In this document: one piece after another, positions 1,153 to 43,194 of the stretch
How positions within the stretch are numbered: the stretch's first letter is position 1
Layout of the letters: each line of letters starts with the position of its first letter
Assembly: GCA_964617375.1 (NCBI GenBank)
Contig: CAZTXQ010000004.1
Location: forward strand, 34,546 to 98,545
Length of the DNA: 64,000 bases
Reading direction: 5' to 3'
DNA from: an uncultured Mageeibacillus sp.
GTDB taxonomy: Bacteria > Bacillota > Clostridia > Saccharofermentanales > Saccharofermentanaceae
Translations under genes and position numbers: made by a program
Notes under the pieces: model-generated
What the model was told of the DNA's origin: nothing
What the model saw: only the letters and a program-made list of their open reading frames with translations
The model's database searches: none

Positions 1153-1154
1153 CG

Positions 1155-2084: not shown

Positions 2085-2088
2085 CAGT

Positions 2089-3108: not shown

Positions 3109-3185
3109 GGCCGCAAATAGCAAGACGACAGAATCCGAATGTGAATCCGCCCGCGTGAAAACGCCCTTTGAAAGGAGCTCCCGAT

Positions 3186-3683: not shown

Positions 3684-3849
3684 TAACGGATACCGGGAAA
3701 TTTCTCGTCACTTCGGGGTCCCGTGATAGTCGATTTTCTGGTATAATAGTAATACACCTTGCGCTAATTCAAAGCAGTTGCGACTTGAGGCATGCGCCTC
3801 AAGCATCAATGTGCCCGTGTTCTTTGCTCAAAGAGAGAGGATTCTTTTC

Positions 3850-5013: not shown

Positions 5014-5033
5014 ACCGCTTTTCCGTTCAGGCT

Positions 5034-5474
5034 TTACGTGCGTTCCTCAATCATGGTTTCCGCCAGAATCACGGCATCCGAAACCATTTTGGGACAAACG
5101 GATGAAAACAATCCCTTGCTTTTCAGAATTTCCAAATCTTCCGGCACCGAGAGATTATATCCAAGAAGCTCGCGGCATAGAATCGAGCCGTTCTTCCCGA
5201 TAAACCGGCGCTCAAACTCGAGTGCCAGCGCATTGGACCTTGCTTTCGCGTCCGGGTCGTCCGGAGCATCATAACCGCAGTACAGACCGATCGCCATAAG
5301 TGCGCCCGTTACCGCTCCGCGCACCTCGCCGCATCTCATTCCGCCGCCGAAGCATGACGCGATACGAAACGCCTGATTCCGGTCGAGACCGGTATCCTCT
5401 GTCAGCGCAGCGAATGCGGACTGTGCACAGTTCATCCCGCTGTTGAACATTTGGACGGCTTCATTTTCGCGCAT
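5034..5474 (-). CDS. C_GCAxxG_C_C family protein
   Basis: 146 aa with FNSGMNCAQS, a ...CGEVRGAVTGALMAIG core and a C-terminal Cys. This is the family's typical layout. Confidence 0.7.
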   Translation of the reverse strand: MRENEAVQMFNSGMNCAQSAFAALTEDTGLDRNQAFRIASCFGGGMRCGEVRGAVTGALMAIGLYCGYDAPDDPDAKARSNALALEFERRFIGKNGSILCRELLGYNLSVPEDLEILKSKGLFSSVCPKMVSDAVILAETMIEERT

Positions 5475-5523
5475 ATAAATTACCTCGCTTGTTATTTTTT
5501 ATTATTCTACATGATTTTGAATC

Positions 5524-5907
5524 TCACGGCGTATCCGGCCGGTTCTTCTCCCTGTATTTTTCGATCTGATCCCGGTCTTCGATTTCCAGTTCTTTTGTGC
5601 CGCCCATAGACTCCAGGTGGTGGCGGAATTCATGCTTTAAGGTGTGTACAATCCGTTCCCGGAGAAGATTCTCATCGAGATTCCCGTACGTTCGTATAAA
5701 ACTGCCGTAGTATATGGCGATATTCCGTCCCATAACAGAATCATAGTGATACTCACCAAGAATATAGAGATCGCCATGTACGGCCTCAGGATGTATTTTC
5801 CATTCCGGAAGCAGCCGGATACCGCCATTTAAATCGTCAAAAAAGTCGGGCGGCATTTCGTCTGCCGCCTCGCTTAAGATTCTATTAAACTCGGCGAGGG
5901 AAATCAT
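5524..5907 (-). CDS. zincin-like metallopeptidase-fold protein (DUF1025-like)
   Basis: 127 aa with an HEFRHH (HExxH-type) motif near the C-terminus. It overlaps the upstream HD-GYP gene by 23 nt. Confidence 0.55.
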   Translation of the reverse strand: MISLAEFNRILSEAADEMPPDFFDDLNGGIRLLPEWKIHPEAVHGDLYILGEYHYDSVMGRNIAIYYGSFIRTYGNLDENLLRERIVHTLKHEFRHHLESMGGTKELEIEDRDQIEKYREKNRPDTP

Positions 5908-7453: not shown

Positions 7454-7471
7454 TGATGTCCTCCCGCAAAT

Positions 7472-9283
7472 TTATGCAAACGGAATTAATATATAAAACG
7501 TCGTACCCGAACCTTCCACCGATTCAAACCACATGTCTCCGCCAAACTTACCTACGATATTCGAATACGACATATAAAGTCCAAGTCCTGTGCCCTGTTT
7601 CGCTTTCGTCGTAATCATTTCTTTAAACAATTTCTGTTTTACTTCATCCTTCATGCCACATCCGTAATCACGAACCGACAGCAATAACTTACCCTTGTCA
7701 TTGGTCAGAATCAGATCAACAGTCCCCTCCTTGCCTTCATACGCATCGATGGCATTGTTGATCAAATTATTCACAATTTGGACAAGACTGTTCACTTCCC
7801 CCTTTATCATAGTCGATTTTTCCATTTCACAAACTACATTTAGTTTACAACCATATTTTTTTAGTTCGTGATTCATCAAAATATCGATTCTTTTTAAGAG
7901 TTCATTGATTTCAAACTGATCGGTAGTCGTTGCCGTCAGCTGTACGGCCTGCCCCTTAACCGTAGAGATAATGTCCGACATATAAGCGCAGTACTGATTG
8001 ATTTTCTCGGTCCATCCGCGCATTTCCCGCGTAATTTCATGATAATCCTCTCTGTCAACCTGCGGGTCATCTACGGAGTCATCTATCTCCCTGATCAAAT
8101 CCATAAGACCTTCGACGGCACCGGAGACCGACATAATCGGAGTTTTCAGGTTATGCGCAATTCCTCCGACCATTTGTCCCAGACTTGCCAGATGCTCCCT
8201 CTCGATCAGTTGCGTCTGCGTATGTTTGACTAATTCAAAAGACTTCTTCAGATCGGTTATATCCTTAATAAGTATAATCATTCCGTCATATCTTTTGTCT
8301 TTAATGATCGGTGTTATTTCAATAGAAAAGATAACGTCGATATCCTTATACTGCATCTCTTCTTCGCAGAACGCGGATTTCTTATCCATCCCGGCCTGAA
8401 TGAACGCTGTTTTTAATGGTTCAAGCCGGTCCGGCGCATACTTTTCTATCTGTTCGATAAAAGTCCAGATTCCGGTTTTTCGTTTGATGTCGACAAATCC
8501 GGAAAAATGGGTGATAAACGCCTTATTGTAATCCACAATGCTGTGATCGCTGTTCAGAACGAGATAACTGTCAGAAATGTGGTCGACAATCGTTTGGACC
8601 GCAATAGGGAGTACATTCAGAAAGTCGTATTTTATAATGGCAAGGGCAAAGCAGATTGCAGCAACCGTAAAGGAAATGGGTTCAAAGTACATGGAAAAGG
8701 TGGCAATCTTCGTCACAAAGGCGAGATCCACCGTGAGTGGAACGACGATCCCGATCGCTATCAGAACGGACTGTCTGGAAAAGAAACCCGCATTCTTAAT
8801 CGAAAAGAAAATCAGATAGAACAAACCGATCAGTATGAGCGGATATGCATAAAGAGACTGAAGATTGTGAAGCGGCCCGCTTAGCAATTCACTGTTGATC
8901 AGCGAATAATTTTTGAAATACAACCGATGATAGTCGTTGGTCCAGATGGCCGCCATGTTGAGGATCGGGAAAATGAGTGTCAGATAATTCAGTCGATTGA
9001 TCTTTTCGCCGGCCGAAAACGATCGACCCAGAAGATATACAAACACGGAGACAAATCCGACCGCCGAGAAATAAACATTGGTAAAAAACATGCCCTCGTA
9101 GTGAAACAGAGAAACGGCATACGATTCCGTCAGCATACCCGTGCACCAGCTGAAGATGCTTGCGATCAGCGCGATCGAAATGATATGAATCTCTCTTTTC
9201 CGGTGCATTCCGACAATCATGAAAAGTGTAATTCCGGTTGTCAAAGCCGAAATATGCAGCAGAACAAATGCCAAATCCTCCAT
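7472..9283 (-). CDS. sensor histidine kinase with an N-terminal 7TM module, a PAS-like domain, an H-box and an HATPase_c domain
   Basis: About seven hydrophobic helices fill the first roughly 220 aa. The H-box is GGIAHNLKTPI. The ATPase N/G boxes are NLINNAIDA, RDYGCGM and GTGLGL. Confidence 0.85.
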   Translation of the reverse strand: MEDLAFVLLHISALTTGITLFMIVGMHRKREIHIISIALIASIFSWCTGMLTESYAVSLFHYEGMFFTNVYFSAVGFVSVFVYLLGRSFSAGEKINRLNYLTLIFPILNMAAIWTNDYHRLYFKNYSLINSELLSGPLHNLQSLYAYPLILIGLFYLIFFSIKNAGFFSRQSVLIAIGIVVPLTVDLAFVTKIATFSMYFEPISFTVAAICFALAIIKYDFLNVLPIAVQTIVDHISDSYLVLNSDHSIVDYNKAFITHFSGFVDIKRKTGIWTFIEQIEKYAPDRLEPLKTAFIQAGMDKKSAFCEEEMQYKDIDVIFSIEITPIIKDKRYDGMIILIKDITDLKKSFELVKHTQTQLIEREHLASLGQMVGGIAHNLKTPIMSVSGAVEGLMDLIREIDDSVDDPQVDREDYHEITREMRGWTEKINQYCAYMSDIISTVKGQAVQLTATTTDQFEINELLKRIDILMNHELKKYGCKLNVVCEMEKSTMIKGEVNSLVQIVNNLINNAIDAYEGKEGTVDLILTNDKGKLLLSVRDYGCGMKDEVKQKLFKEMITTKAKQGTGLGLYMSYSNIVGKFGGDMWFESVEGSGTTFYILIPFA

Positions 9284-9327
9284 TTAAGGGCCTCCTCCCG
9301 AGCTGATTGTCCCTTTGCGGGACCGGT

Positions 9328-12300
9328 TTATCGTTCCTTTTCCGCGAGTACCGCCGACATGATACCGACAAGTTCCTCCGCATGCGTATTGATGAAGTAA
9401 TGCTCGGCTCCCGGTATGACATGAAGCTTCACATCCTCCGAATAGCTTAGCCAGTTTCTATAACGCGTCGCATAACGGCCGGTCACGCGATCTTGATCAC
9501 CCGCTATAAAACAGATCCCTGTCTTAAGGCGCGGCGAAGGACCTGTCCGGAGACCGTGCAGGTACCGGTAGAACAATCTTGCATCATGCCGGAAAGCTTT
9601 AATCACAAACGCCAGACTGTCCGCATCGTACGAGTTCTTCGGAAGGCCGATGCGCATCAGATAATCCAGGATCTGCTTGTCGGAGGAGAACATCCAGGGA
9701 TCGAAGAATCCGCCGTAAATCCCGACATATCTCGGAGGGTAAGTACCGCCGGCAAAGATACCCGCGATCGCAATCCCGGCATTTTCGAGCAGATGCGCCA
9801 GTGCGAGCATCGGTGCGCATCCCACACAGTGCCCGTAGAGTACGACTTCCGGGGGATTCATCCGGACGATCTCATCAAAAATAAGCTGCGCGGTCGCTTC
9901 GGCTGTCAGGAATACCGGATCGGCACCTGTATCATGGCCGGACAGGTTTACCGCATACAGGGAATACCCCGGCAATACGGGACGTGCCGCGTCGGACATA
10001 TTCCGGTAAGAGAGAACGGTGCCTCCGCCGTAGGGGAAACAGATTACCGGGATTTTCCCCGTCCGGGTTCCGGATGAGAGTCTCACAAGAACCGGGTTCT
10101 CTTCCTCTTCCCCGCTGTCAATAAGCGCGGCCAGTTCGCGTATGGTAGGGTTCTTATACAGATCGACAAGCGTAGCCGCATATCCGTTATCGGGCAGTTT
10201 TGAGATGAATTTGACCGCCTTTAAGGATTCGCCGCCGATCGCGAAAAAATCATCGTCGAGACCGATGTCCTCTGTCTCAAGAACCTCCGACCACAAGCTG
10301 TACAGCAATTTCTCGGTATCACTTTCCGGTGCGGAGTATTTTCGCTCGGGCCGAATCGCTTCTTCAAAACCGGGCAGCATCGCCTTGTCTATTTTGCCGT
10401 TCCGGTTCAGCGGGATCTCCGGTATGCGAATAAAGTAGGCCGGAATCATATATGTGGGCAGGCTCACGGACAGGAAGCTTTTGAGCTCTTCGTATCCGAT
10501 CCCTGTATCTGATGTGAAATACGCGTAAAGCTGCTTTTCGCCGTATCGATCGGCGCGCGGATATACAAAAACTTCACGTATTTTCGCGTGCTTCAGGAGT
10601 TCCGATTCAATTTCGCCAAGTTCGATTCTGTAACCCCGGATCTTAAGCTGATTGTCGATTCGGCCGAGATACTCAAGGTCACCCGATTCCAGAACTCTGG
10701 CCAGGTCACCCGAGCGGTACATCCGTTCTTTTTCGACAAACGGATTCGGACAGAATTTGACCTGCGTAAGCTCCGGATTATTGAGATATCCGCGGCCTAA
10801 CCCCGCGCCGCTTACACAGAGTTCTCCCGGCACTCCGACCGGGACGAGGTTCAACTCTTTGTCGACAACAAATGTCTTAAGAGTCGGGATCGGCACTCCG
10901 ATGTTTCCGGTATTCGACAGAATTTCCCGGTCCCCGATTTCTTTAACGGTAACGTGAACCGTCGTCTCCGTAATGCCGTACATGTTGATCAGCCTGGTTT
11001 CCGGATATCGGTCGCGAAAAAGCTTAAGAAGTCTCGGGCGCAGGGCGTCGCCGCCAAAAATCACATACCGAAGCGAAAGTCCTGCGTCTTTTGAGGATTC
11101 TTCGTCGATCAGGTTGTAAAAGGCGGCCGGAGTCTGATTCAGGACCGTCACCTTCTCCCGTATCAGAAGATCAATAAACTCACGTGTGTCTCTCGTTTTT
11201 GTTTTTGGAACAAGGACAAGACGCCCGCCCCTTAAAAGTGCCCCGTACATCTCCCACACCGAGAAATCAAAACAGAACGAATGAAACATCGTCCATACGT
11301 CGTTCTCCGAAAATTCGAACGGGAATCGGCTGTTAAACAGAAGTCTCACGACATTTCTGTGTTCGATCATGACACCTTTGGGTTTGCCGGTAGAGCCGGA
11401 CGTATAGATGATATAGGCCAGGTTGCCGGGGGCATGTTCTCCTCTTCTGACCGGCGATACCGGCGAATACACGGCTATATCCTCCGGACGGATGCACTCG
11501 GTGATCGGGAGAAATCTCTCCGGAAACGGTCCGGCTGCCAGAAATGCCTTAGCACGGCTGTCTTCCAGAAGATAGGCCGTCCGTTCAACCGGCGCATCGG
11601 GATCAATCGGAAGATACGCCGCGCCTGCTTTCAGAATTCCCAGAATTCCGACGATCATTTCAAAGGACGGTGCAAGGGATATCGCGACAATATCGTCCGC
11701 CTCCACGCCCCTGTCAAGCAGCATGCCGGCGAACGCATCCGATCTTTCGGCGAGTTCTCTGTAGGTCATGGAGCTCTCCCCCATGGTAAGCGCCGTTCTT
11801 TCCGGGTACGACGTAACGCATGCATCGAATATCGAATCAATCGTCTCATCGTCCGGGAAAGAAGCGTCCGTATCGGAAAAACCGGTTATCAGAGAAGCTT
11901 TCTCTTCCTGGGACAGCAATGGGATTTTTCCGATCGCAATCTGATCGTCCGCCAGCACAGCGTGCAGAACATTCCGATAATGCGACAGAAAACGGTCTAT
12001 CGTATTTTCCGAGAAGAGATCTGTGCTGTATTCCGCGCCGATCCGGATCCCGTCCGGCGTGACATCCGCTTCAAGGGTCAGATCGAATTTCGTCGTACCG
12101 GTATCGATTATTCCCGGCGCAAATTCAAGCTTATCCGCCTTCATAAGCGAGATGTCCATGTTCTGAAGAACGAAGCACGTATCAAACAGGGGATTCCGGC
12201 TTAAATCTCTGGTCGGATACACTTTCTCGACCAGACGTTCCACAGGATAATCCTGATTCTCGTAAGCTCCGATTAAGTCGGATCTCACTTCGTCAAGAAA

Positions 12301-15300
12301 AGCGGCAAACGTCTTATCCCATGCCGGATTACTCCGTACGGCAAGCGTGTTAACGAACATACCGATCAAATCAAGAGTGTCGGGATGCCGTCTTCCCACA
12401 ATGGGGATACCGACGACGATATCATCCTGTCCCGAATAGCGGGACAGAAGAACATGGAAAGCCGCATACAGCACCATAAAAATCGTCGCGCGCGCATGCG
12501 CCGCCATATCCTTTATTCCGGATACAGTCTCCGGATTGAGACTTATCGACGTCCGCGAACCCCGGAAGGATTTCCGTGAAGGCCGCGCATGATCCGTCGG
12601 CAGATTAAGGACGGGCACTTCGCCTTTAAATCTCCCGAGCCAGTATTCCTCTTCCCGTTTCAGATCGCCGGCTGAGAGCCGCGCGTTCTGCCAGGCCGAA
12701 TAATCCTTATATTGGTTTCTGATTTCGGGAAGCTCGCCTCCCGAATAGAGAGCCGCAAATTCACGCTCCAGAATATTCACCGACTCACCGTCGGAAATAA
12801 TGTGGTGCATATCGATAAGAAGGACGTGTCTCTCGGCTCCGAGTGTTATGAGTTCCGCGCGTAAAAGAGGCGCGGTCCCGAGATCGAACGGCCGGACAAA
12901 TTCTTTCATTATGAACGGTAATTCCTTCTCGTCCGCCTGACGTTCGGGAATACGGAATGCCGCCTGCGGGTTAACGATCTGCACGGGAACGCCGTCGATG
13001 AGCAAAAATGAAGTCCTCAGGGACTCGTGCCGGTCAATTATTTTCGCAAAGGCTTCGGAAAGTGCCGGAACAGACAGAGGTCCCTTGATTTCGACAGCCG
13101 CGGGGAGATTATAGTTAATTCCCTCACCGTCAATCTGCCTAAGGAGAAAGAGGCGTTTCTGAGACGGCGAAACATCATAGGAAGAGGCCTCGGGAACCGG
13201 CAGAATCGACTGTCTGCCCGGCACGCCCGTTTCATCTATTTTCTTGCCGATTTTTCGCACGGTTCTTAACTGAAAGATATCGCTGATTCCGATTTCCGCA
13301 CCGAATCTTTTCTGAATCGCCACGGAAAGAGAGATCACTTTGAGCGAATCGCCTCCGAGATCAAAAAAGTCCTCGTCAACGCCGATCACCGATATTTCCA
13401 GAATCTTTGTCCAGATCTCAAGAAGAACCGCTTCGGTTCCGGTTTCCGGTGCCGTAACCTGCGTTTTGACCGTATCTTCAAAACAGGGTTCGGGAAGTGC
13501 TTTCCGGTCCGCCTTTCCGTTTGGCGAAAGCGGGATATTTTTCATATACATAAAGATGGCCGGAACCATATAATCGGGAAGCCCGGATGACAGATGCGAT
13601 TTTAAAGACGAAACATCCAGCTCTTTATCGGAAGTATAGTAGGCGCAAAGATACGTCGAATCCTTGTGCGATTTCGCCGTTACCACGCTGCTCAGAACTT
13701 TGGGATGTGCCGACAGCCGGTTCTCGATTTCGCCGAGCTCGATCCGGAAACCGCGGATCTTAATCTGAAAATCAAGACGCCCGAGATACTCGATATCCCC
13801 TTTCGGATACCAGCGTGCCTTGTCACCCGTTTTGTACATGATTTGACCCGGAAAGAAAGGATCCGGAAGAAAACGTTCCGCCGTAAGCGTCGGATTATTG
13901 ATATATCCGCGCGCGACGCAGATCCCGCTGATATAGAGTTCACCCGGAATCCCGACCGGCAGGAGCTTGTGGTTCTTGTCCAGGATATACAGGCGCACAT
14001 TGTCAATCGGCCTTCCGATCGGAACATTTTTTAAGTTTACGCGCGGAGAACAGTCAAAGTACGACACATCCACGGCAGCCTCCGTCGGACCGTACAAGTT
14101 ATACAGCTGCGCGCCGCATCGATCATACAAGTTCCGGTTGAAACGCTCCGTCTGACGGAGCGTCAGCGCCTCACCGCTCGCGAAAACCTGTTTCAGCGAC
14201 ATGAGCTTTCCGGTCATATCCTTCTCCGTGACATAATCCAGAAATGCGCCGAGCATGGAAGGCACAAAGTGCATCGTTGTCACCTTGTTCTTATCGATCG
14301 CATCCGCGATCACCTGAGGGTCTTTTTCACCGCCCGGCTCGAGCATCAGAACGCCGGACCCCGTGAAAGTCCACCAGAAAAGCTCCCATACGGATACATC
14401 AAAGGTGAACGGCGTTTTCTGCATAATCAGGTCTTCGGGATGAATGGGGTATTTTTTCTGCATCCAGTTGATGCGGTTGACGATGCTTCTGTGCCGGATC
14501 ATAACGCCCTTGGGTTTGCCGGTTGATCCCGATGTATAAATCACATAGGCGAGATCGTCGGGTCCGCTCATGCATTCGGGATTTGAAATGTCTCCGCGAT
14601 ACAGTTCCGGATCTTCCAGATACAGAACTTCGGCTCCCGGATCGGCAAGCTTTGAGGAAAGTGCGGTCTGCGTAAGAAGAAGGGTCGCTCCGCTGTCCCC
14701 GATGATATAGCGAATGCGATCTGCCGGATAATTCGGATCGATCGGAAGATACGCGCCGCCGGCTTTGAGGATAGCCTGAACCGCAATGATCATTTCAAAG
14801 GAACGGTAAACCGAGAGAGCGACAATTCGGTCTGGTCCGATGCCCTTTTCGATCAGACAGCGTGCCAGTTGATTTGACTTCTCGTTCAGCTCACGGTACG
14901 TCATCACGCGTCCGTTTGAGATTACCGCGCGCGCATCCGGGGTTTGGGAAGCCTGCTCATACAGGAATTCATGAAGTGTTTTCTCGTACGGATAATCAGC
15001 GGTCGTGCGGTTAAAATCGACAAGAATCTGCTGTTTCTCTTTCTCGGAAAGCATCTCCAGCCGCCCGATCGCTCTTTCCGGATTGTCGAGCGCATGCCAA
15101 AGGATATTGATCACATGCCGGTTGAGACTCTCTATCTCATTAATATGGTAAATTTCCGTCAGAAAATCGTAATTCAGTACAAAGCGGCCTTCGTCGTCGC
15201 GGTCATTCACATGAATGATGAGAGACTCGACCTGTTGTCCCGTGAAATGCCAGCGGCTCTTGACTACCTCTCCGAATTGAGTCGATTCGAACTTCGAATT

Positions 15301-16380
15301 CTGATAATTCAGAACAATATCATAGAGCCTGTGCGGGAGATTGTGATTTCTCTTCAAGTCTTTGAGAAGATAATTGTAAGGATACTTCTGATGGCGCAGA
15401 ATATTCATATTCTCGCGGCTCATCATTTCGGAAAACTCCGAAAAGTTCTTGGCATCGATCATCCGGACGCGGACCGGCGCGGCAACACTGACGAACATAC
15501 CGGATGTCTCTTTCTCGCGTGCATTGATCCGGTTCAGGATCGTAGTCCCGAGAATAATGTCGTCATTTCCCGTTACTCGATGAATATATATGCAAAGTGC
15601 CGCCATAAAAAGAGTAAACGGAGATTTATTATTTCGCGAGCAGTAGTCACGTATCTTATCCGACAAGACCTGGGGAATGATAAAGGACTTTCGCGCCGAC
15701 ATAATGCTCTCCGTCGTAAGCGCCTGAGGTTTCAGGACGGTCGGCTCCGGAAAGGAAGCAAATTTCCCGTTCCAGTATTCCCGGTCTTTCAAGAATCGCT
15801 CCGAGGACTCATAGGCCATCTCGTTTTTTAAGTGCTCGAAAAAAGACGGCTTCGGCGCATCTTCATACGGAAGATTCCTGCGCAGCGCGGCATAATAGGC
15901 GGTTATCTGATTCCCTATTACGGACATATTCCAGGCATCCGAGATAATATGGTGCAGCTTGACGAGCACCCCGCCGTTACTGTCGTCAATTTTAATCACA
16001 GTAAAAGAGAACAAATCCGAATCATACAAAGGAAAAGGCCGCTGCGTTTCCTTGACATCCCATGCGTACAGGGATTCAAGACCAGTCGTACTAAAATCAA
16101 AATAATCCAATTCCTTCTCTTCGAACGAAGATGCATACTGCAGGGGTTCTCCATTTTCCTCATGAATCCGTATACGAAGACCTTCGTTGTTCTTGATAAC
16201 AAGTATGACGGCCTTCCGCAAGGCATCATAATCAATCGTTCCCACGTAACGAATGGTTCCGGATATAATGTTCATATACGTTCCGGGATACTTCTGCTCA
16301 AGATACCAGATCGACTTCTGCGGCTGCGATAACTCGTAAAAAACCTTATCCATATACTCTTGTTTCCCTTCGAAAGGCAT
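9328..16380 (-). CDS. bimodular non-ribosomal peptide synthetase, C-A(Ser)-T-C-A(Thr)-T-TE
   Basis: Domain map in aa and approximate nt: C1 10-445 (15046-16353, HHIISDAW); A1 470-965 (13486-14973; LAYVIYTSGSTGKPKG, YKTGD, GRLDFQIKIRG); T1 975-1045 (GGDS, Ser1012 at 13345-13347); C2 1062-1495 (HHIISDGE); A2 1515-2005 (10366-11838); T2 2015-2085 (GGES); TE 2095-2350 (9331-10098). An alternative start is MDKV at 16353. Confidence 0.95.
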   Translation of the reverse strand: MPFEGKQEYMDKVFYELSQPQKSIWYLEQKYPGTYMNIISGTIRYVGTIDYDALRKAVILVIKNNEGLRIRIHEENGEPLQYASSFEEKELDYFDFSTTGLESLYAWDVKETQRPFPLYDSDLFSFTVIKIDDSNGGVLVKLHHIISDAWNMSVIGNQITAYYAALRRNLPYEDAPKPSFFEHLKNEMAYESSERFLKDREYWNGKFASFPEPTVLKPQALTTESIMSARKSFIIPQVLSDKIRDYCSRNNKSPFTLFMAALCIYIHRVTGNDDIILGTTILNRINAREKETSGMFVSVAAPVRVRMIDAKNFSEFSEMMSRENMNILRHQKYPYNYLLKDLKRNHNLPHRLYDIVLNYQNSKFESTQFGEVVKSRWHFTGQQVESLIIHVNDRDDEGRFVLNYDFLTEIYHINEIESLNRHVINILWHALDNPERAIGRLEMLSEKEKQQILVDFNRTTADYPYEKTLHEFLYEQASQTPDARAVISNGRVMTYRELNEKSNQLARCLIEKGIGPDRIVALSVYRSFEMIIAVQAILKAGGAYLPIDPNYPADRIRYIIGDSGATLLLTQTALSSKLADPGAEVLYLEDPELYRGDISNPECMSGPDDLAYVIYTSGSTGKPKGVMIRHRSIVNRINWMQKKYPIHPEDLIMQKTPFTFDVSVWELFWWTFTGSGVLMLEPGGEKDPQVIADAIDKNKVTTMHFVPSMLGAFLDYVTEKDMTGKLMSLKQVFASGEALTLRQTERFNRNLYDRCGAQLYNLYGPTEAAVDVSYFDCSPRVNLKNVPIGRPIDNVRLYILDKNHKLLPVGIPGELYISGICVARGYINNPTLTAERFLPDPFFPGQIMYKTGDKARWYPKGDIEYLGRLDFQIKIRGFRIELGEIENRLSAHPKVLSSVVTAKSHKDSTYLCAYYTSDKELDVSSLKSHLSSGLPDYMVPAIFMYMKNIPLSPNGKADRKALPEPCFEDTVKTQVTAPETGTEAVLLEIWTKILEISVIGVDEDFFDLGGDSLKVISLSVAIQKRFGAEIGISDIFQLRTVRKIGKKIDETGVPGRQSILPVPEASSYDVSPSQKRLFLLRQIDGEGINYNLPAAVEIKGPLSVPALSEAFAKIIDRHESLRTSFLLIDGVPVQIVNPQAAFRIPERQADEKELPFIMKEFVRPFDLGTAPLLRAELITLGAERHVLLIDMHHIISDGESVNILEREFAALYSGGELPEIRNQYKDYSAWQNARLSAGDLKREEEYWLGRFKGEVPVLNLPTDHARPSRKSFRGSRTSISLNPETVSGIKDMAAHARATIFMVLYAAFHVLLSRYSGQDDIVVGIPIVGRRHPDTLDLIGMFVNTLAVRSNPAWDKTFAAFLDEVRSDLIGAYENQDYPVERLVEKVYPTRDLSRNPLFDTCFVLQNMDISLMKADKLEFAPGIIDTGTTKFDLTLEADVTPDGIRIGAEYSTDLFSENTIDRFLSHYRNVLHAVLADDQIAIGKIPLLSQEEKASLITGFSDTDASFPDDETIDSIFDACVTSYPERTALTMGESSMTYRELAERSDAFAGMLLDRGVEADDIVAISLAPSFEMIVGILGILKAGAAYLPIDPDAPVERTAYLLEDSRAKAFLAAGPFPERFLPITECIRPEDIAVYSPVSPVRRGEHAPGNLAYIIYTSGSTGKPKGVMIEHRNVVRLLFNSRFPFEFSENDVWTMFHSFCFDFSVWEMYGALLRGGRLVLVPKTKTRDTREFIDLLIREKVTVLNQTPAAFYNLIDEESSKDAGLSLRYVIFGGDALRPRLLKLFRDRYPETRLINMYGITETTVHVTVKEIGDREILSNTGNIGVPIPTLKTFVVDKELNLVPVGVPGELCVSGAGLGRGYLNNPELTQVKFCPNPFVEKERMYRSGDLARVLESGDLEYLGRIDNQLKIRGYRIELGEIESELLKHAKIREVFVYPRADRYGEKQLYAYFTSDTGIGYEELKSFLSVSLPTYMIPAYFIRIPEIPLNRNGKIDKAMLPGFEEAIRPERKYSAPESDTEKLLYSLWSEVLETEDIGLDDDFFAIGGESLKAVKFISKLPDNGYAATLVDLYKNPTIRELAALIDSGEEEENPVLVRLSSGTRTGKIPVICFPYGGGTVLSYRNMSDAARPVLPGYSLYAVNLSGHDTGADPVFLTAEATAQLIFDEIVRMNPPEVVLYGHCVGCAPMLALAHLLENAGIAIAGIFAGGTYPPRYVGIYGGFFDPWMFSSDKQILDYLMRIGLPKNSYDADSLAFVIKAFRHDARLFYRYLHGLRTGPSPRLKTGICFIAGDQDRVTGRYATRYRNWLSYSEDVKLHVIPGAEHYFINTHAEELVGIMSAVLAEKER
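9826..9828 (-). other. TGT codon for Cys2185 at the thioesterase nucleophile-elbow position (GHCVG instead of GxSxG)
   Basis: The minus strand reads ctc tac ggg cac tgt gtg gga tgc gca, which is LYGHCVGCA. The surrounding context is FPYGGG...GHCVG...GDQD...GAEHY, the order expected for an alpha/beta-hydrolase TE with Asp and His partners. Confidence 0.7.
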
Positions 16381-17017
16381 TTTCTAAAAAAGAGTCTTCG
16401 CTGACCGTCGTAAGATGTCTGATTTCGTCCGCATTTTCCGAACAGCAACTGATGAAATAATCTCCCTCTCTTATCGTCTGCAGCATGCCTTTAATATCCG
16501 GTTTAAAGATACCCGGGTCCGCCAGAACCTCCGCCCATCCCTTCCCAAGCCATTTCAGGTAGGCTTCCTTCCGGGTCCAGATCTCAAAGAAGCGGGCACG
16601 CGTGTCACCCTCTCCGGTAAAGACATAGTTATACTCGCGGTCCGTAAAAACTTTACGGGCGATATCTTTATCCGGGGGGCCGGTCTTCTCGACATCCACG
16701 CCGACATCCCTGTCGCCGAATGCGACAGCAATCGCGCTTCTTGTATGAGACACACTAAAATACAGAGAAGGCTGGTATTGCAAGAACGGCTTGCCGTATG
16801 AATTCCGTATGAATATTAAATCCCGATTCTGAATAGACAATTTCTCGCACAGCAGATGCCGGAGAAATATGTCCGAATATAGAAGGAGCTTCCGGTCTAT
16901 ATCGGCGCGCATCGATTCAATCTGCTTTATTCTCCGTTCGGGAAGAAGCGGCAGAAAATGTTCGGTGACTTCGGGGTCATAACGACAGCTCGTTTCCAAA
17001 AAATACAAATGAATCAT
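16346..17017 (-). CDS. Sfp-type 4'-phosphopantetheinyl transferase
   Basis: 223 aa with FSVSHTRSAIAVAF, GVDVEK and WTRKEAYLKWLGKG motifs. Its stop codon is 4 nt from, or overlapping, the NRPS start. Confidence 0.85.
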   Translation of the reverse strand: MIHLYFLETSCRYDPEVTEHFLPLLPERRIKQIESMRADIDRKLLLYSDIFLRHLLCEKLSIQNRDLIFIRNSYGKPFLQYQPSLYFSVSHTRSAIAVAFGDRDVGVDVEKTGPPDKDIARKVFTDREYNYVFTGEGDTRARFFEIWTRKEAYLKWLGKGWAEVLADPGIFKPDIKGMLQTIREGDYFISCCSENADEIRHLTTVSEDSFLENAFRRETRVYG

Positions 17018-17221
17018 AAACGGTTACCACGCTTTTCTTACCATAGATCTTAAGAAAGCTAAACCGGTCAAAATTAAACCTATATAATTATTACATGTTG
17101 ATAAAAATTTGAAAAGAGTTTACATACAAGTTTTCTTACAAAAGTAGATATAGATTGATTAATTGAAATGAGAAGTCCCCCTTTTTTGGCGAATCGGGGG
17201 TGAAATCCGCCTTGTCCCATT

Positions 17222-18097
17222 TTAAGGCCAGTATACCTGCTCCACACCGGTGATGACATTGCCGGTTACCGTGCAGTAGTAGAAGTACGAAGAGTAGGTA
17301 ACCAGTTCAGGGTGAGCATTATATATCGAACAGAATTGATCATAATGAAAAGGAATGGATAAGGCGTCGTTGATAGCGCTTCCGTCTAAGTTGCACATCA
17401 TTTTAATCGTCACGATACTCATATTGGCAGAACGAAGCTGTGGATTAATGTTCTTATAGACAAATTCACTGTCCGCAAAATTGTTGACTATATCCTCGGC
17501 TTCTGTACGGGTATAACCTTCCTGGTCGACAAGCCAGTCAATCGCATCCTCGCCTCGCAGCATATCGAAATAATCAAACGAAGCGACCCCGGTTGACGGA
17601 TCAAAGGCCGTCATGATCGCATAACTCGAATACATGTTGGCTGTATTGACCGGTGCCGTCGATGATACGGTCCCGGCGGGCGTAATGATTGCGGTCGTCG
17701 CAGGACCCGTCGTTGCGGCGCCGGTATCTGTTCCTTCCGCCGCAGTTCCCGCTATAGATGTTTCATATAAAGCCGAGTCCGATGCGCCGGCTGTGGTTGC
17801 CGTTGTTGTCCGGTTGCCGAACAGATTCGAGAGCCAGGAATCAATATTGTTTCCCCCGCCGGACGACGATTCGGACGCTCTTGATTCTGTCTCGTCTGCA
17901 CTGGCCGTCTCTTCACGGGATGGTTCATTCGAGTGATCCGAACGGCCGGTTTTTAAGGACAGAAATCCGAAAAGCAAACCGCCGGCAAAGAGTAAAATCA
18001 CTGCGAGCAGCAGCGCCGAGGCGATAATCAGTATTTTTTCGAGTGTTGTACGACCGGCTCTTTTCCTAAAAACCCGCATTTTCTCATAATCAAACAT
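17222..18097 (-). CDS. hypothetical single-pass membrane protein with a Ser/Thr/Ala-rich linker and a C-terminal globular domain
   Basis: A basic N-terminus is followed by a TM helix (ILIIASALLLAVILLFAGGLLFGFL), a low-complexity TTATTAGAS... linker, and about 140 aa of ordinary composition. I do not recognise a family. Confidence 0.45.
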   Translation of the reverse strand: MFDYEKMRVFRKRAGRTTLEKILIIASALLLAVILLFAGGLLFGFLSLKTGRSDHSNEPSREETASADETESRASESSSGGGNNIDSWLSNLFGNRTTTATTAGASDSALYETSIAGTAAEGTDTGAATTGPATTAIITPAGTVSSTAPVNTANMYSSYAIMTAFDPSTGVASFDYFDMLRGEDAIDWLVDQEGYTRTEAEDIVNNFADSEFVYKNINPQLRSANMSIVTIKMMCNLDGSAINDALSIPFHYDQFCSIYNAHPELVTYSSYFYYCTVTGNVITGVEQVYWP

Positions 18098-18614
18098 TCT
18101 ATCGTACCTCTTTTTCAGAAATCAAAGAGTTCCTATGCTTAGCCGTTTATGAGCTAATGTTAAACTTGAATGATTGGAATATCAATAATTATTTATATAC
18201 AAAATGTATATCAGTAAGGCGATGCTAAAGAGGACAGCGTTCCGTTCATTGAGAAAGGAGAATCCGATGCGCTCGTAAAATGTGTAATCCGATTCGAATG
18301 TTCGGGCGTAACCCCTGAATCTTATTGTGGCATTCACCCGCCGTATTTCGGTCATAATTTCTTAGCACACCTGGTTGACCAGTCCTTTTGATAGCAACCA
18401 TATCAATGTATGACTATTTGCTATAAATTCTTCTAAAAATGATGAAATCATCTTGCTGTATTGTTACGTTTGTGCTAAAATTATGTCAAATAAAAATGAT
18501 ATATGTGAATTTTTACGATAGTTTCTATGTTGGTACGCGCTGATTTCAGAAGCTTGGCCTGATTTTTATCTTCCGGCAAGAGATGTACGCATAATCCCGC
18601 GTTAGCCGAAAGAC

Positions 18615-18705
18615 TTTTTGAAAAGGGCAACCTGCACCAAAGTGCAGAAACGCAAAGTCTGGAATCTAAAGGTTCTCCCATGATTGTCCGACTGCCGATT
18701 AGTAT
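18615..18705 (+). promoter_or_regulatory. candidate c-di-GMP-I (GEMM-I) riboswitch aptamer in the leader of the surface-protein gene
   Basis: The sequence is AAAAGGGCAA-CCUGCAC-CAAA-GUGCAG-AAACGCAAAGUC-UGGA...UCCGAC-UGCCGAUUAG. It matches the GGCAAAC / hairpin / ACGCAAAGC / second hairpin / CCGAU layout remembered from Vc2 and Cd1. Boundaries are approximate. Confidence 0.5.
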
Positions 18706-18859
18706 TTCGATTCATGACGATATTCATGACCGTCTCTGATATCTGTCGCAATTTCATATGCCCCGATATTAAGACGGCCGGTGTGCGCACCCGTCTCTGC
18801 CGACGATTCGCCGCAAATGCACTCGCATTTGCCGGAGAACGGATGAGTGGAGGTATCAA

Positions 18860-21769
18860 ATGAACCGATCATCTATTCACGTATCTTTTTCTTTCAAAGC
18901 CATTCGAAAACAACTCTATCTGTTGCTGGCTATGTTATTCCTTCTCTCGAATATTCCGTTTACGGTAGCCGCCGGCGCAGAGGATGCTCCTCATTCCGAA
19001 ACAGCCATTGCCGCCCATAGTGCGGAAAGCCTCCGCTGGAGTTCGCCGCTTCTCTTCAAAGATAATGAAGTCGATCCGGCGACCTTGAACGGCGGACCGT
19101 TACTGACGCTCACCAAACTTACCAACGGAGCGGACGGAAGCTTTATTCCGGCCGGATCAGAAGTAACATGGACGTATACCGCAACAAACTGCGGCATTGT
19201 TGATCTGTATCACGTAATCATAACGGATTCGAATCTCGGCTTTATAGGTATAATCCCTACTCTTCCCGTTGGCGCTTCAGAGACGCTCACCAGGATCGGA
19301 ACCGCAATTTCCGGACCTTATGCAAACATGGGTTATGCGCAAGGTTTCTTCTCCTTGGGAGGGGAACCGCTTCCGCCGGAATCCTTTGATCCATGCTGTC
19401 TCCCGCCTGTTATACTTCCAACCTTTGCGTTTGACGGAAGTTGCTACTTTGGTTCTGAACCTTCGATCGCAATCGACAAAACAACCAATGATTTCGACGG
19501 ACAGTATATCCTGACCGGCGATGCCATTACCTGGTCCTACAAAGTAACCAATACCGGAAACGTAACTTTGACCAATGTCCGGGTTGACGACTCCGTTGCG
19601 GGACCTGTCGGAACAATCGCCTCTCTTGCTCCCGGGGAGTCGCAAACGCTGACTCTTGCGGGAACTGCCATTGCAGGTGCATATAAAAACACAGGAATCG
19701 CTGTCGGAACGCCTCCTGTCGGCGAAGAAGTAAATTCGAGCGACGACAGCGGTTATTACGGAATTCATCCTTCGCTCTCCATCAGTAAATTAACAAATGG
19801 TGCCGATGCGGCGAAGATTCTCGTCGGAGATCCGATTGAGTGGACTTATGACGTTACCAACGACGGCAATGTCGATTTGGTATCCATTACGGTAACCGAT
19901 TCCGACCCGGCAATCGGTGTAGTCGGAACGATCGACAGTCTGCTTGTCGGCCAGACAGCAACCCTGAGCCGCATGGGAACAGCGACGGCGGGCGCTTATG
20001 CCAATACAGGCACAGCAACCTGCGAATACTCGCTCGAGCAAGGCAGTATTGATTTGATGTGTATCGAAACGCCTCCCGACTGTACTCCGGCTCCTACCGG
20101 TACTCCTCAACCGATCCAAACAACGGTATCGGCCAGTGACGACAGCAGCTACTTCGGAGTTTCGCCCGCAATCACTATGTCGAAAACAACGAACGGGACC
20201 GACGGTTCCATGATTCTCAAAGGCAGTCCGATTGTCTGGACATACACGGTCACCAATACGGGCAACAGCGTACTTACGAATGTTACCGTTACAGATTCCG
20301 ATCCTGCGATCGGAGAAGTCGGTACCATCGCGACGCTCGCTCCCGGCGAGACACAATCACTCACGGCTAACGGAACGGCCGGAACCGGAGCTTACGATAA
20401 CACAGGATCGGTTCACGGTACGCCGGAAGCCGGCGCAGACGTAACAGCCGCGGATTCGAGCTCGTATTTCGGAGCCGATCCGGTCGTTGGCATATCAAAA
20501 ACCACCAATGATCTTGACACAGGCAGCTTCCCCGTCGGCACAGCGCTTACATGGAAGTATACGATCAGCAATCTTGGAAACATCGAAATTGTAAATATTA
20601 AAATTACGGATTCGATGGAGGGCGATGTCGGCACGATTCCCTCGCTCGCTCCCGGCGAAACGGCAGCACTTACACTCACCGGAACAGCCGTTGCCGGAGC
20701 CTATACGAACACCGGAACGGCGACTGCAAATTATGAATTGCTTCCTGCTCCCTCCTCGGTCCAAAGCATGAATCTCTTACTGAACGGCGAGGAAGGAAAT
20801 CAGGTAACCGCGTCCGATGACAGCAGCTATTTCGGCTATACGGCGAGTCTTTCTGTGAATAAAACCACAAACGGCGGAGACGGAATTACGCTGGACGTAG
20901 GTGACACAATTACCTGGTCGTACGAAGTAACGAATACCGGAAACGTAACGGTCACGAACATTACGGTAACGGACTCGGATCCTGATATCGGTCAGGTAGG
21001 TACGATCGCATCTCTTGCTCCCGGAGAATCCCAGACGTTAACCGCGTCCGGAACTGCGGAGGCAGGCGATTACAGCAACACCGGAACCGTGAGCGGTCAA
21101 CCGGTTGCTGCCGATGATTCTGCAATCGGAGATGTCATTACAGCTTCCGATGCCAGCAGCTACTTCGGTTCCGGACCGGCGATTGACATCGCCAAGACGG
21201 TTCAGAATATCACCACGGCAGGAGCTGCCGGAAAGACAGCGACCGGCGCACCGGGTGACGATTTCAAATTCACTCTTGTCGTAAAGAATACCGGAAATAA
21301 AGATCTTTCTCAGATCCTGATTACGGACAGCAAGGCCGCAGTCGGTTCTGCGGTAACGGTAGACGGTACGCCGAAGAACTGGGCATCGGGCGCCGGCGGA
21401 ATTGCCACGCTGGAGCTGACAGGCCTTGCCGCGGGAGCGAGTTCAACGATCACCTACACACTTGACACCGCAGCGGGTGATGGAACGCTGATCATGCTGA
21501 ACGTAGCGACGGTTTCCGCAATGGATCTTTCAACGGAGAAACAGGTCGAAGATACGGATGTCGCAACACTATCGACGTCATCGGTACTCGGAGCCGTACG
21601 GTCTACACCGACACCGACACCGAATTCGTCGAGTGTTCTCGGAGCAGCCCGAACCGGTGAAGCCTTCGGGTTTGCGGATTGGATCGGAACGCTGTTCCTG
21701 CTCGCGGCAGCCGGCCTTACACTTCGACTTGTGATTCGTAAAGAAGAGAAGTCGATGCATAACAAATAA
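18860..21769 (+). CDS. secreted surface protein with seven DUF11-like (conserved repeat domain) modules and a C-terminal membrane anchor or sorting tail
   Basis: The RBS is gagtggagg. There is a signal peptide. The recurring module is K(T)TNG.DG..(I)..G..I.W.Y.VTNTGNV.L.N(I)TVTDS...G.VGTI.SLAPGE(S/T)..LT..GTA..G.Y.NTG. The C-terminus has a TM helix followed by RKEEK. Confidence 0.85.
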   Translation: MNRSSIHVSFSFKAIRKQLYLLLAMLFLLSNIPFTVAAGAEDAPHSETAIAAHSAESLRWSSPLLFKDNEVDPATLNGGPLLTLTKLTNGADGSFIPAGSEVTWTYTATNCGIVDLYHVIITDSNLGFIGIIPTLPVGASETLTRIGTAISGPYANMGYAQGFFSLGGEPLPPESFDPCCLPPVILPTFAFDGSCYFGSEPSIAIDKTTNDFDGQYILTGDAITWSYKVTNTGNVTLTNVRVDDSVAGPVGTIASLAPGESQTLTLAGTAIAGAYKNTGIAVGTPPVGEEVNSSDDSGYYGIHPSLSISKLTNGADAAKILVGDPIEWTYDVTNDGNVDLVSITVTDSDPAIGVVGTIDSLLVGQTATLSRMGTATAGAYANTGTATCEYSLEQGSIDLMCIETPPDCTPAPTGTPQPIQTTVSASDDSSYFGVSPAITMSKTTNGTDGSMILKGSPIVWTYTVTNTGNSVLTNVTVTDSDPAIGEVGTIATLAPGETQSLTANGTAGTGAYDNTGSVHGTPEAGADVTAADSSSYFGADPVVGISKTTNDLDTGSFPVGTALTWKYTISNLGNIEIVNIKITDSMEGDVGTIPSLAPGETAALTLTGTAVAGAYTNTGTATANYELLPAPSSVQSMNLLLNGEEGNQVTASDDSSYFGYTASLSVNKTTNGGDGITLDVGDTITWSYEVTNTGNVTVTNITVTDSDPDIGQVGTIASLAPGESQTLTASGTAEAGDYSNTGTVSGQPVAADDSAIGDVITASDASSYFGSGPAIDIAKTVQNITTAGAAGKTATGAPGDDFKFTLVVKNTGNKDLSQILITDSKAAVGSAVTVDGTPKNWASGAGGIATLELTGLAAGASSTITYTLDTAAGDGTLIMLNVATVSAMDLSTEKQVEDTDVATLSTSSVLGAVRSTPTPTPNSSSVLGAARTGEAFGFADWIGTLFLLAAAGLTLRLVIRKEEKSMHNK
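19103..21469 (+). repeat. seven in-frame tandem domain repeats of about 105-130 aa each inside the surface-protein gene
   Basis: The repeats start near LTKLTNGADGS, IAIDKTTNDFDG, LSISKLTNGADA, ITMSKTTNGTDG, VGISKTTNDLDT, LSVNKTTNGGDG and IDIAKTVQNITT. Divergence shows mainly at the DNA level, while the protein motif is retained. Confidence 0.8.
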
Positions 21770-43163: not shown

Positions 43164-43194
43164 TGTCCTGAATGAACCGATGCACAGATGCGCG

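Follow-up and report, generated by a model that had tools for sequence, protein, structure and literature searches.

To our knowledge, the thioesterase of ObiF1 is the only characterised thioesterase of a nonribosomal peptide synthetase (NRPS) that forms a beta-lactone. ObiF1 is the obafluorin synthetase, its cysteine thioesterase closes an N-acyl-alpha-amino-beta-lactone, and a C1146S mutant mainly hydrolyses (PMC6668435). Among the structurally characterised NRPS thioesterases, only ObiF1 and SulM carry the catalytic aspartate at position II, with a glycine at the usual aspartate site (PMC11298585). Other NRPSs, found in the gut, make dipeptide aldehydes, and their products have been summarised (PMC12327764). 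On the signalling side, proteins of the architecture REC-DUF3369-HD-GYP form the RpfY family of cyclic di-GMP (c-di-GMP) phosphodiesterases (bioRxiv 10.1101/2021.11.05.467447). We describe here a locus in which these elements lie side by side. It is contained in 64,000 nucleotides of an uncultured Mageeibacillus sp. (contig CAZTXQ010000004.1, positions 34,546 to 98,545 of the forward strand), a stretch that we call the window and number from its first letter. A four-gene operon on the minus strand, running from 17017 to 5885, encodes an Sfp-type 4'-phosphopantetheinyl transferase (PPTase), a bimodular NRPS, a histidine kinase with a seven-transmembrane (7TM) and a PAS region, and a REC-DUF3369-HD-GYP response regulator.

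The locus defines a family in anaerobic Clostridia that has the catalytic signature of ObiF and is predicted to act on ordinary Thr or Ser. We propose, at about even chances of being right, that an N-acyl-Ser-Thr beta-lactone is a self-made signal that would be read by the 7TM kinase and would control c-di-GMP via the HD-GYP regulator.

Results

A cysteine thioesterase of the ObiF1 type

The four genes of the operon are as follows.

16346 to 17017, minus strand: Sfp-type 4'-phosphopantetheinyl transferase, 223 aa (Pfam ACPS and AASDHPPT_N)
9328 to 16380, minus strand: bimodular NRPS with condensation (C), adenylation (A), carrier (T) and thioesterase (TE) domains in the order C-A(Ser)-T-C-A(Thr)-T-TE, 2350 aa from the ATG at 16380 (Pfam Condensation twice, AMP-binding twice, PP-binding twice, and a C-terminal Thioesterase)
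7472 to 9283, minus strand: sensor histidine kinase, 603 aa, with HisKA_7TM, PAS, HisKA (His377) and HATPase_c (Pfam, sequence, hydropathy)
5885 to 7453, minus strand: response regulator, 522 aa, REC (Asp62)-DUF3369-HD-GYP (Pfam, motifs)

The NRPS stop is separated from the kinase gene by 44 nt, and the kinase from the regulator by 18 nt. A first-pass annotation, made from the DNA letters, had described the 2350-aa reading frame 9328-16380 with its domain order and the 223-aa PPTase frame, and both are borne out by the open reading frames (ORFs) and by Pfam. It had also spoken of a minimal NRPS operon. This part has to be revised, as the transcription unit runs past 9328 through kinase and regulator to a terminator at 5869-5849. 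The operon indeed holds no ligase, acyl carrier protein (ACP), tailoring enzyme or exporter, as had been stated, but that description omitted the kinase and regulator genes.

The last domain of the synthetase is the one that bears most directly on the product.

9331 to 10095, minus strand: ObiF1-type thioesterase with a Cys nucleophile (GHCVG motif, PDB sequence search, AlphaFold2 and Foldseek)

Its triad consists of Cys2185 (codon 9826-9828), Asp2297 (9490-9492) and His2327 (9400-9402), with Gly2211 at the position where the aspartate usually stands, and the Cys in the GHCxG motif is common to all bimodular relatives of the window NRPS. When the domain is compared with all PDB sequences, the ObiF1 thioesterase (6N8E) is the best match (E 1.2e-33, 120 bits), and the next match reaches 43 bits. 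In the pairwise alignment Cys2185, Gly2211, Asp2297 and His2327 correspond to ObiF1 Cys1146, Gly1173, Asp1254 and His1284, and all four residues are invariant in a 14-sequence alignment of the family (alignment A1). The AlphaFold2 model of the domain has a pLDDT of 87.9, and Foldseek places ObiF1 first (E 1.5e-20, TM 0.83, 32% identity), followed by the SulM thioesterase and then by the type II thioesterases RedJ and RifR. The domain thus combines the GxCxG cysteine, a RifR-like position-II aspartate paired with the glycine, and specific homology to ObiF1.

We then asked which residue stands next to such a thioesterase in other genomes. A genome scan with the thioesterase alignment gave 50 loci. 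The code of the module adjacent to the thioesterase is Thr or Ser in 31 of the 33 kinase-linked loci with a cysteine thioesterase (9 of 11 distinct code sets), and Thr or Ser stands in the last module in only 2 of the 37 distinct code sets of sister NRPSs that terminate in a reductase. This difference is significant by locus (Fisher p = 4e-15) and with de-duplicated code sets (p = 1.6e-6), both values being uncorrected for phylogeny. The smallest relatives are single-module proteins, C-A(Thr/Ser)-T-TE(Cys), that is, the core of ObiF1. The trimodular members L007 (P0004) and P0005 (L and P numbers denote loci) have a Ser nucleophile (GHSAG or GHSVG) in a thioesterase of the same clade, and their last code is neither Thr nor Ser; judged by sequence, they are consistent with a link between the cysteine and a beta-hydroxy residue.

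Because an ObiF1-type cysteine thioesterase adjoins Thr, the data point to beta-lactone release, and by analogy to ObiF1 the most likely product is an N-acyl-L-Ser-L-Thr beta-lactone, formed by an ObiF1-type mechanism. The first-pass annotation had predicted an N-capped Ser-Thr dipeptide from a minimal NRPS. Its bimodular Ser-Thr assignment stands, whereas a plain dipeptide acid is unlikely with this thioesterase next to Thr. Release of a linear acid by ordinary hydrolysis, with an inconsequential cysteine and unrelated two-component genes, does fit the domain order and the codes; cysteine hydrolases can hydrolyse, and the clade holds Ser variants as well as Cys variants next to residues that have no hydroxyl. 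However, ObiF1 needs its cysteine for the lactone, and exchange of this residue for Ser turns the enzyme mainly to hydrolysis (PMC6668435). Furthermore, the family alignment shows no exchange of the Cys, the relocated Asp or the Gly; a Thr or Ser in last position goes strongly with the cysteine thioesterase and not with the reductase type; and the four-gene cassette persists through complete changes of the flanks and through changes in module number. We therefore regard simple hydrolysis as distinctly improbable.

The domain order C-A-T-C-A-T-TE with Thr in last position is also that of DhbF, and a DhbF C domain is among the PDB matches. A siderophore synthetase of the DhbF/EntF kind, in which an aryl or acyl cap is supplied in trans and the thioesterase oligomerises acyl-Ser-Thr into a macrolactone, has to be considered for this reason. 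We reject this reading and would give it hardly any probability. No 2,3-dihydroxybenzoate (DHB) genes, aryl carrier protein, adenylating enzyme or iron uptake genes are found in the window or in its relatives, the triad is of the ObiF1/RifR type, EntF-type thioesterases are absent from the PDB sequence matches and from the top Foldseek matches, and the conserved partners are signalling proteins.

Thioesterases of this kind are not confined to Clostridia. ObiF1-like domains are found without the kinase and regulator in Actinobacteria (L040, L042, L044-L050 and L052; Micromonospora, Streptomyces, Dactylosporangium and Embleya), most of them with Cys and two with Ser (L044 and L048). Several of these actinobacterial proteins, of about 1800-1900 aa, have the thioesterase in the middle of the protein as in ObiF, where it adjoins Asn/Asp-like codes (DLTKxxHxxK); others have Thr. 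The wider clade of ObiF1-like thioesterases comprises 351 clusters at 50% identity (E <= 1e-30), and among GTDB representatives the thioesterase closest to that of the window is 44% identical.

Predicted substrates of the assembly line

The remaining domains of the two modules, apart from the first C domain, are the following.

13474 to 15006, minus strand: A1, code DVWHFSLVDK (Ser), residues D661 V662 W665 H704 F733 S735 L762 V770 D771 K956 (HMM-anchored alignment)
13246 to 13428, minus strand: T1 carrier domain, GGDS motif with Ser1012 (Pfam, motif)
11890 to 13182, minus strand: C2, typical LCL elongation domain, HHIISDGE at aa 1192 (Pfam, PDB scores)
10357 to 11871, minus strand: A2, code DFWNIGMVHK (Thr), D1705 ... 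K1996 (HMM-anchored alignment)
10126 to 10308, minus strand: T2 carrier domain, GGES motif with Ser2052 (Pfam, motif)

Colinear C, A and T domains followed by a release domain, with HHxxxD in C1 and C2, GG[DE]S in T1 and T2 and the A10 lysine in A1 and A2, identify a modular type I NRPS. The Stachelhaus positions were taken from a hidden Markov model (HMM) alignment of all A domains of the window NRPS together with 120 homologues, and the same two codes can be read by eye in the translation against the GrsA motifs FDxS, xTxLPP, xAGxA, NxYGPTE and NGK. Both approaches confirm the codes that had been proposed initially for the two modules; only the Lys517 equivalents, given there as K874 and K1913, are correctly K956 and K1996, which leaves the codes unaffected, and the other residue numbers were right. 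The assignment of these codes to substrates (EntF-type Ser, canonical Thr) is established NRPS knowledge. About 25 full-length homologues, the most distant with about 49% identity, keep both codes. C2 is clearly an elongation domain by its PDB scores (TycC C6 399.8 bits, RzmA starter C 50 bits). Within the 64-kb window, HMMs built from the domains of the window NRPS itself, which have limited sensitivity to distant ligases and ACPs, recovered no other A-, C- or T-like ORF.

Some cassettes differ in their codes. DPWHFCMVEK or DPWHLCMVEK replaces the Ser code of module 1 in L003/L012 (Sporobacter termitidis), L015, P0031, P0035 and P0038. Further codes without a known substrate, DFWNFGLILK, DFLCIGIIFK and DMWTCGLMFK, occur in L005 and L006.

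The first condensation domain and its acyl donor

The synthetase begins with a C domain that has no carrier domain in front of it.

15016 to 16359, minus strand: C1, first-position (starter-type) condensation domain, aa 8-455 (HHIISDAW, aa 143-150)

The motif HHIISDAW is present as annotated before, at residues 143-150, and C1 is thus the first domain of the assembly line with an intact HHxxxD. Comparison with 386 C domains of homologues and loci shows that its roughly 90 best matches are all first-position C domains, first those of the TE family, irrespective of whether the proteins have one, two or three modules, and then those of reductase-type Clostridial NRPSs. Match scores to C1 are 331-1007 bits for first-position domains and at most 228 bits for internal ones. 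The two classes also differ in their motif, with HHxxxDA in 37/37 first C domains of the TE family and HHxxxDG in 40 of 41 internal ones. In the PDB, C1 matches the LCL domain TycC6 (89 bits) and the RzmA starter C (88 bits) equally well, in contrast to the 400 and 50 bits of C2.

The initial suggestion that C1 is a starter domain or receives its donor in trans can therefore be narrowed: the first-position clade, the invariant HHxxxDA and the PDB profile unlike that of C2 support the starter type over an ordinary LCL domain. Likewise, it holds that C1 has no upstream donor partner, as neither an NRPS nor a ligase nor a carrier protein is encoded for this role in the window or conserved in the relatives. 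The neighbourhoods of cassette and single-module loci contain no conserved acyl ligase, ACP, exporter or second NRPS, and the genes upstream of the single-module loci are unrelated to each other (GHKL kinase, methyltransferase, amino-acid ABC transporter, arginase). As the cassette brings along neither a ligase nor a carrier protein, a donor from primary metabolism is indicated, and C1 is probably a conserved, active starter-type domain that is served by general metabolism.

A vestigial C1 would have different consequences for the product, since a free Ser-Thr dipeptidyl thioester would then be released as diketopiperazine or as free dipeptide. In the related reductase-type gut NRPSs, some of the N-terminal C domains reportedly give non-acylated products (Guo et al., 2017), which counts for this possibility. 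Nevertheless, we consider it very improbable here. HHxxxDA is invariant in all 37 first C domains, the C1 clade is well conserved with scores of 400-1000 bits, and the first C domain is kept even in the single-module C-A-T-TE relatives, where it would otherwise be without a role.

A kinase and regulator pair that accompanies NRPSs

The order PPTase, NRPS, HisKA_7TM kinase and REC-DUF3369-HD-GYP regulator is found in five homologues with 44-51% NRPS identity and unrelated flanks (L001, L003, L005, L006 and L007), among them Sporobacter termitidis DSM 10068 (L003) and metagenome-assembled genomes (MAGs) labelled Peptococcaceae and uncultured Sporobacter. A 97%-identical cassette with the same order lies on the ENA contig ERZ27239232 k141_47307 (L058). 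In the GTDB genome scan, kinase and regulator directly follow the cysteine-thioesterase NRPS in about 30 species of Clostridia, with L037, L038 and L041 as exceptions, and the actinobacterial loci with a cysteine thioesterase are without the pair.

For the reverse test, metagenome contigs were scanned with a 28-sequence kinase alignment and 80 loci were kept. A cysteine thioesterase lies upstream of the kinase homologue in only 5 of 66 of these metagenome loci. We reject this fraction as a refutation of the linkage, because the remaining upstream ORFs are NRPSs with a reductase as their terminal domain. Wherever 2 kb or more of upstream sequence is available, an NRPS ORF lies immediately next to the kinase gene; L114 is the exception, and L076 has a truncated ORF in this place. 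These upstream NRPS ORFs comprise 39 with the order C-A-C-A and 15 with C-A, and their tails have the size of either T plus TE or T plus reductase (R). On a 334-kb contig of a human gut metagenome (L096, ORLW01000006.1), Pfam identifies a C-A-T-C-A-T-R protein followed by the 7TM kinase and a REC-HD-GYP regulator. In L071 the same kinase and a REC-DUF3369-HD-GYP regulator stand behind a C-A-T NRPS, whose C-terminal tail of about 400 aa has no Pfam match at E<=1e-5. The pair also stands behind the reductase-type NRPSs L139 and L140, which came from the search for NRPS homologues. Altogether, reductase-terminated NRPSs of the type C-A-T-(C-A-T)-R directly precede a HisKA_7TM kinase and a REC-(DUF3369)-HD-GYP regulator in L096, L139, L140 and most of L068-L138. 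Because the linkage holds from the NRPS side and from the kinase side, the pair is essentially an NRPS accessory, of which the window represents the cysteine-thioesterase branch.

The kinase has seven hydrophobic segments, its longest loop is about 29 residues by reading of the sequence, and it has no sizeable extracellular domain. This arrangement of membrane segments and short loops would suit a ligand that partitions into the membrane. Among cassettes, identity is 52-72% for the regulator, 41-71% for the kinase core and 27-59% for the 7TM sensor. When pairs of cassettes are matched for regulator and kinase-core identity, a shared predicted peptide goes with an 8-17 point higher similarity of the 7TM region, in five out of five bins.

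In the regulator all motifs are intact (receiver Asp62, the HD motif at 359 in GIFHDIGK, and HHEWVNGTGYP). The protein has the architecture of the RpfY type, and it is predicted to be a c-di-GMP phosphodiesterase. Pfam finds no DNA-binding domain, and as it has no DNA-binding output the protein is not a conventional cluster regulator.

A further connection to c-di-GMP is present in relatives of the synthetase. In three species, Clostridium lacusfryxellense and two MAGs, a PilZ domain is fused to the N-terminus of an NRPS of the single-module Ser/Cys-TE type (L020 88-5619, L025 5150-10711, L026 5141-10738). The N-terminal extension is about 550 aa long; about 330 aa of it, which separate PilZ from the C domain, have no Pfam match. 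The PilZ domain of L026 has the full RxxxR and DxSxxG motifs (RKRSR, DLSLNG), and separate PilZ and HD genes are located upstream. These fusions tie the synthetase itself to c-di-GMP.

The same fusions, together with the separate PilZ gene of L026, suggest that c-di-GMP may control the synthetase, and this leads to the main rival of our proposal, in which the chemistry is the same and the causal arrow is reversed. Kinase and regulator would respond to another cue from the environment and, via c-di-GMP, act on the NRPS from upstream, and the product would be the output, a beta-lactone inhibitor of proteases or hydrolases or an antibiotic, and not the ligand. The thioesterase evidence is identical for both views. 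Moreover, characterised beta-lactones are enzyme inhibitors, as described for obafluorin and threonyl-tRNA synthetase (PMC9880928), and so are the related gut dipeptide aldehydes (PMC12327764). However, the window NRPS has no PilZ domain by Pfam, the cassette has no immunity or export gene as a conserved neighbour, the kinase gene almost always stands directly behind an NRPS gene, a closer linkage than a general environmental sensor would be expected to show, and the sensor domain co-varies with the predicted peptide. We judge this rival unlikely, while it is the one to be taken most seriously.

Elements of c-di-GMP signalling are also encoded around the cassette. A dCache-GGDEF diguanylate cyclase gene is located about 7 kb away (window 24149-25732, minus strand). 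A c-di-GMP-I riboswitch (RF01051, 56.6 bits, gathering score 35) lies at 18616-18699 on the plus strand, about 160 nt upstream of a gene for a 969-aa surface protein with DUF7507/DUF11/CARDB repeats (18860-21769, plus strand). The two are oriented away from the cassette and separated from it by a 291-aa ORF only, and it is plausible that they are a local target of the HD-GYP regulator output. No c-di-GMP riboswitch was found near the cassette in L001, L003, L005, L006 and L007, and the contig of L058 does not include that region; the adjacency in the window may be coincidental.

Gene boundaries and neighbourhood

Two transcription signals were annotated at the ends of the operon.

17087 to 17115, minus strand: candidate sigma-70-like promoter TTTTCA-17-AATAAT with TG, upstream of the PPTase gene (consensus scan only)
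5849 to 5869, minus strand: intrinsic terminator with a 7-bp stem (6 GC pairs) followed by a T-run, 16 nt past the regulator stop, at the operon end

The terminator is the strongest terminator-like site within 4400-19000, and such a site follows only the regulator. Promoter-like matches across the region are not enriched over shuffles, which makes the candidate at 17087 to 17115 weak evidence.

Homologues of the PPTase are located at the equivalent position in L001, L003, L005, L006 and L007. For the translational coupling of PPTase and NRPS that had been proposed, the stop at 16346 and the starts at 16353 and 16380 are all present. The PPTase TAA (16348-16346) overlaps the in-frame NRPS ATG at 16353, and the further ATG lies at 16380. 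Because the homologue N-termini begin 4-8 residues ahead of the conserved 'Y.LSQPQ', the start at 16353 is favoured, and the true NRPS start is likely this ATG, which would give a protein of 2341 aa.

The 291-aa ORF next to the operon (window 17222-18097, minus strand) has no Pfam match and is conserved only in the 97%-identical contig L058. An ORF of 77-78 aa (MPRGVK...), coiled coil-like by eye, follows the regulator in L003, L005, L006, L007, L013, L015, L018 and L056. We rejected it as a member of the cassette, as it is confined to a Sporobacter/Oscillospiraceae sub-branch and absent from the window. A cobalamin riboswitch is found at 43169-43364 (plus strand, 75 bits), and in L003 and L005 such riboswitches are located at a distance of about 5 kb from the cassette; this proximity probably reflects shared synteny. 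Downstream of the operon (window 217-4371 and 5034-5907) lie a Zincin_1-like 127-aa ORF, a gene for a C_GCAxxG_C_C protein and a molybdenum-cofactor cluster (MoaA, MoaC, MOSC, MoCF_biosynth). These assignments were read by synteny with L058, and the 127-aa ORF, with its start as annotated, would reach into the terminator.

Discussion

Taken together, the gene content can be read as a complete circuit. The PPTase would prime T1 and T2, and the starter-type C1 would N-acylate Ser on T1 with an acyl-CoA or acyl-ACP of primary metabolism. The LCL-type C2 would then join acyl-Ser to Thr on T2. After transfer of the chain to Cys2185 of the thioesterase, the beta-hydroxyl of Thr would attack the thioester as in ObiF1, closing a ring in the 4-exo-trig mode, and N-acyl-L-seryl-L-threonine beta-lactone would be released. 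This lipophilic and short-lived electrophile, or its hydrolysis product, might partition into the membrane, where the 7TM kinase would sense it. The kinase would phosphorylate the regulator, hydrolysis of c-di-GMP by the HD-GYP domain would be altered, and c-di-GMP-dependent surface or behaviour programmes would follow. Genes, domains, motifs, homologies and linkage are observed directly; from these we infer the acyl donor, the formation of the lactone and the relationship of ligand and receptor.

Several points weigh against this proposal. The steps on acylation, lactone closure, sensing and c-di-GMP output are proposed from sequence alone. In L005 and L006 the cysteine thioesterases adjoin codes without a known substrate (DFWNFGLILK, DFLCIGIIFK), L007 carries a Ser thioesterase, and the non-cassette loci L038, L040, L041 and L045 pair a cysteine thioesterase with Asn/Asp-like or other non-hydroxy codes. 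The substrate of the ObiF1 thioesterase is an N-aroyl single amino acid and not an acyl-dipeptide. With respect to C1, the tie between TycC6 and RzmA is undecisive alone and informative only against the C2 profile, and C1 was grouped by score comparison, not by a reference phylogeny of the C-domain subtypes. As a diffusible signal a beta-lactone would be unusual, since it hydrolyses readily, and the cassette encodes no exporter. That the genes are linked is no proof of binding of the NRPS product by the kinase, and c-di-GMP acting upstream of the synthetase would explain the PilZ fusions just as well. Finally, the regression coefficient of the same peptide for 7TM similarity is +0.14, from pairs that are not independent and with phylogeny not corrected for.

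Beta-lactone release by an NRPS and circuits of a synthase, a kinase and an HD-GYP protein are each known. Their combination and its spread in Clostridia, including the reductase-type relatives of the gut, is undescribed in the literature searched. The full-text literature searched holds no description of a cassette of NRPS, 7TM kinase and HD-GYP regulator or of Clostridial ObiF-like thioesterases, although a prior mention in the primary papers on gut dipeptide aldehydes is possible; the searchable literature likewise has no mention of the kinase and regulator linkage of reductase-terminated gut NRPSs. As a family, the cassettes with a cysteine thioesterase offer a simple and testable route to new beta-lactone warheads.

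The linkage of NRPSs to a 7TM kinase and an HD-GYP regulator, which extends to the reductase-type relatives of the human gut, suggests that the products are signals controlling c-di-GMP. A broader proposal, which we put forward tentatively and with more doubt than confidence, is that the cassette and its reductase-terminated sisters, which abound in gut and rumen Clostridia, constitute an undescribed class of Gram-positive cell-cell signalling. An electrophilic N-acyl peptide, a beta-lactone here and an aldehyde in the sisters, would be the ligand of the 7TM kinase, possibly a covalent one, and the kinase would set c-di-GMP through the HD-GYP regulator. If this were true, the gut dipeptide aldehydes regarded as protease inhibitors would primarily be bacterial autoinducers, and the reading of that NRPS family would change. 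Acyl-peptidyl beta-lactones would then be a lactone signal class of anaerobic Firmicutes, beside N-acylhomoserine lactones and gamma-butyrolactones, and NRPS-based autoinduction in Clostridia would be directly testable with four genes.

How does the locus compare with the systems known so far? ObiF1 (Burkholderia diffusa / Pseudomonas fluorescens; PDB 6N8E) shares the GxCxG cysteine, the relocated Asp, the Gly at the usual Asp site and the His. In ObiF1 and, by prediction, in the window NRPS a (2S,3R)-type beta-hydroxy amino acid stands on the adjacent T domain, and the C-A-T-TE core of ObiF1 recurs in module 2 of the window NRPS and in the single-module relatives. In contrast, ObiF1 takes 2,3-DHB from an aryl carrier protein and attaches it to a single non-proteinogenic residue. 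It has an MbtH-like domain, and the P. fluorescens protein also has an aryl-adenylating domain after the thioesterase. The window NRPS is predicted to use two proteinogenic residues (Ser, Thr), is without aryl machinery or an MbtH-like domain, belongs to an anaerobic Firmicute and is linked to a two-component system. The thioesterase of SulM (PDB 8W2C), which forms the monobactam sulfazecin and is the second structural match, likewise has a Cys nucleophile, a position-II Asp and closes a four-membered ring. It is only 19% identical, however, and its motif is Gln-Cys-Asn, with a basic pocket that accepts N-sulfonated diaminopropionate, whereas the window thioesterase has the His-Cys-Val/Ala motif of ObiF1 and a terminal Thr.

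The bacillibactin synthetase DhbF has the identical order C-A-T-C-A-T-TE and Thr as second residue. It needs aryl loading by DhbE/DhbB, and an EntF-type thioesterase for trimerising lactonisation; partner genes of the DhbE/DhbB type are absent from the window, and with no aryl-activation or carrier genes and a thioesterase of the ObiF1 type the window NRPS is not a catecholate synthetase of the DhbF/EntF family.

Closer relatives are the C-A-T-C-A-T-R NRPSs of gut Clostridia, for example that of the ruminopeptin 'rup' cluster of Ruminococcus bromii (the family described by the Fischbach laboratory), which make dipeptide aldehydes or pyrazinones and to which we liken the reductase-type loci by architecture. 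Outside the TE family no NRPSs are more closely related to the window protein (about 40-45% identity), and the first C domains of this group come next after those of the TE family in similarity to C1. The same HisKA_7TM kinase and HD-GYP regulator stand behind reductase-type NRPSs with this domain order, and short electrophilic (acyl-)peptides are predicted for both types. The window NRPS is nevertheless not a member of the aldehyde family, as it ends in a Thioesterase and not in a reductase (NAD_binding_4), so that an aldehyde-forming release stands against a cysteine thioesterase, and a mostly hydrophobic last residue against Thr or Ser.

The diffusible signal factor (DSF) system RpfF/RpfC/RpfG of Xanthomonas also links a synthase gene to a membrane sensor kinase and a REC...HD-GYP protein with c-di-GMP output, and the regulator described here has, with intact motifs, exactly the architecture of the RpfY family (for example V. 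cholerae VCA0210). The synthase, in contrast, is an NRPS and not a crotonase-family RpfF, and the HisKA_7TM-PAS kinase is non-hybrid, without the receiver or HPt domains (Pfam) that would place it with RpfC, so that the locus does not belong to the Rpf/DSF system, although it may operate by a similar logic with the NRPS as signal synthase; the ligand relationship is here an inferred one. Thus, the system resembles the Rpf, DhbF and reductase-type aldehyde families in one respect each and is a member of none of them.

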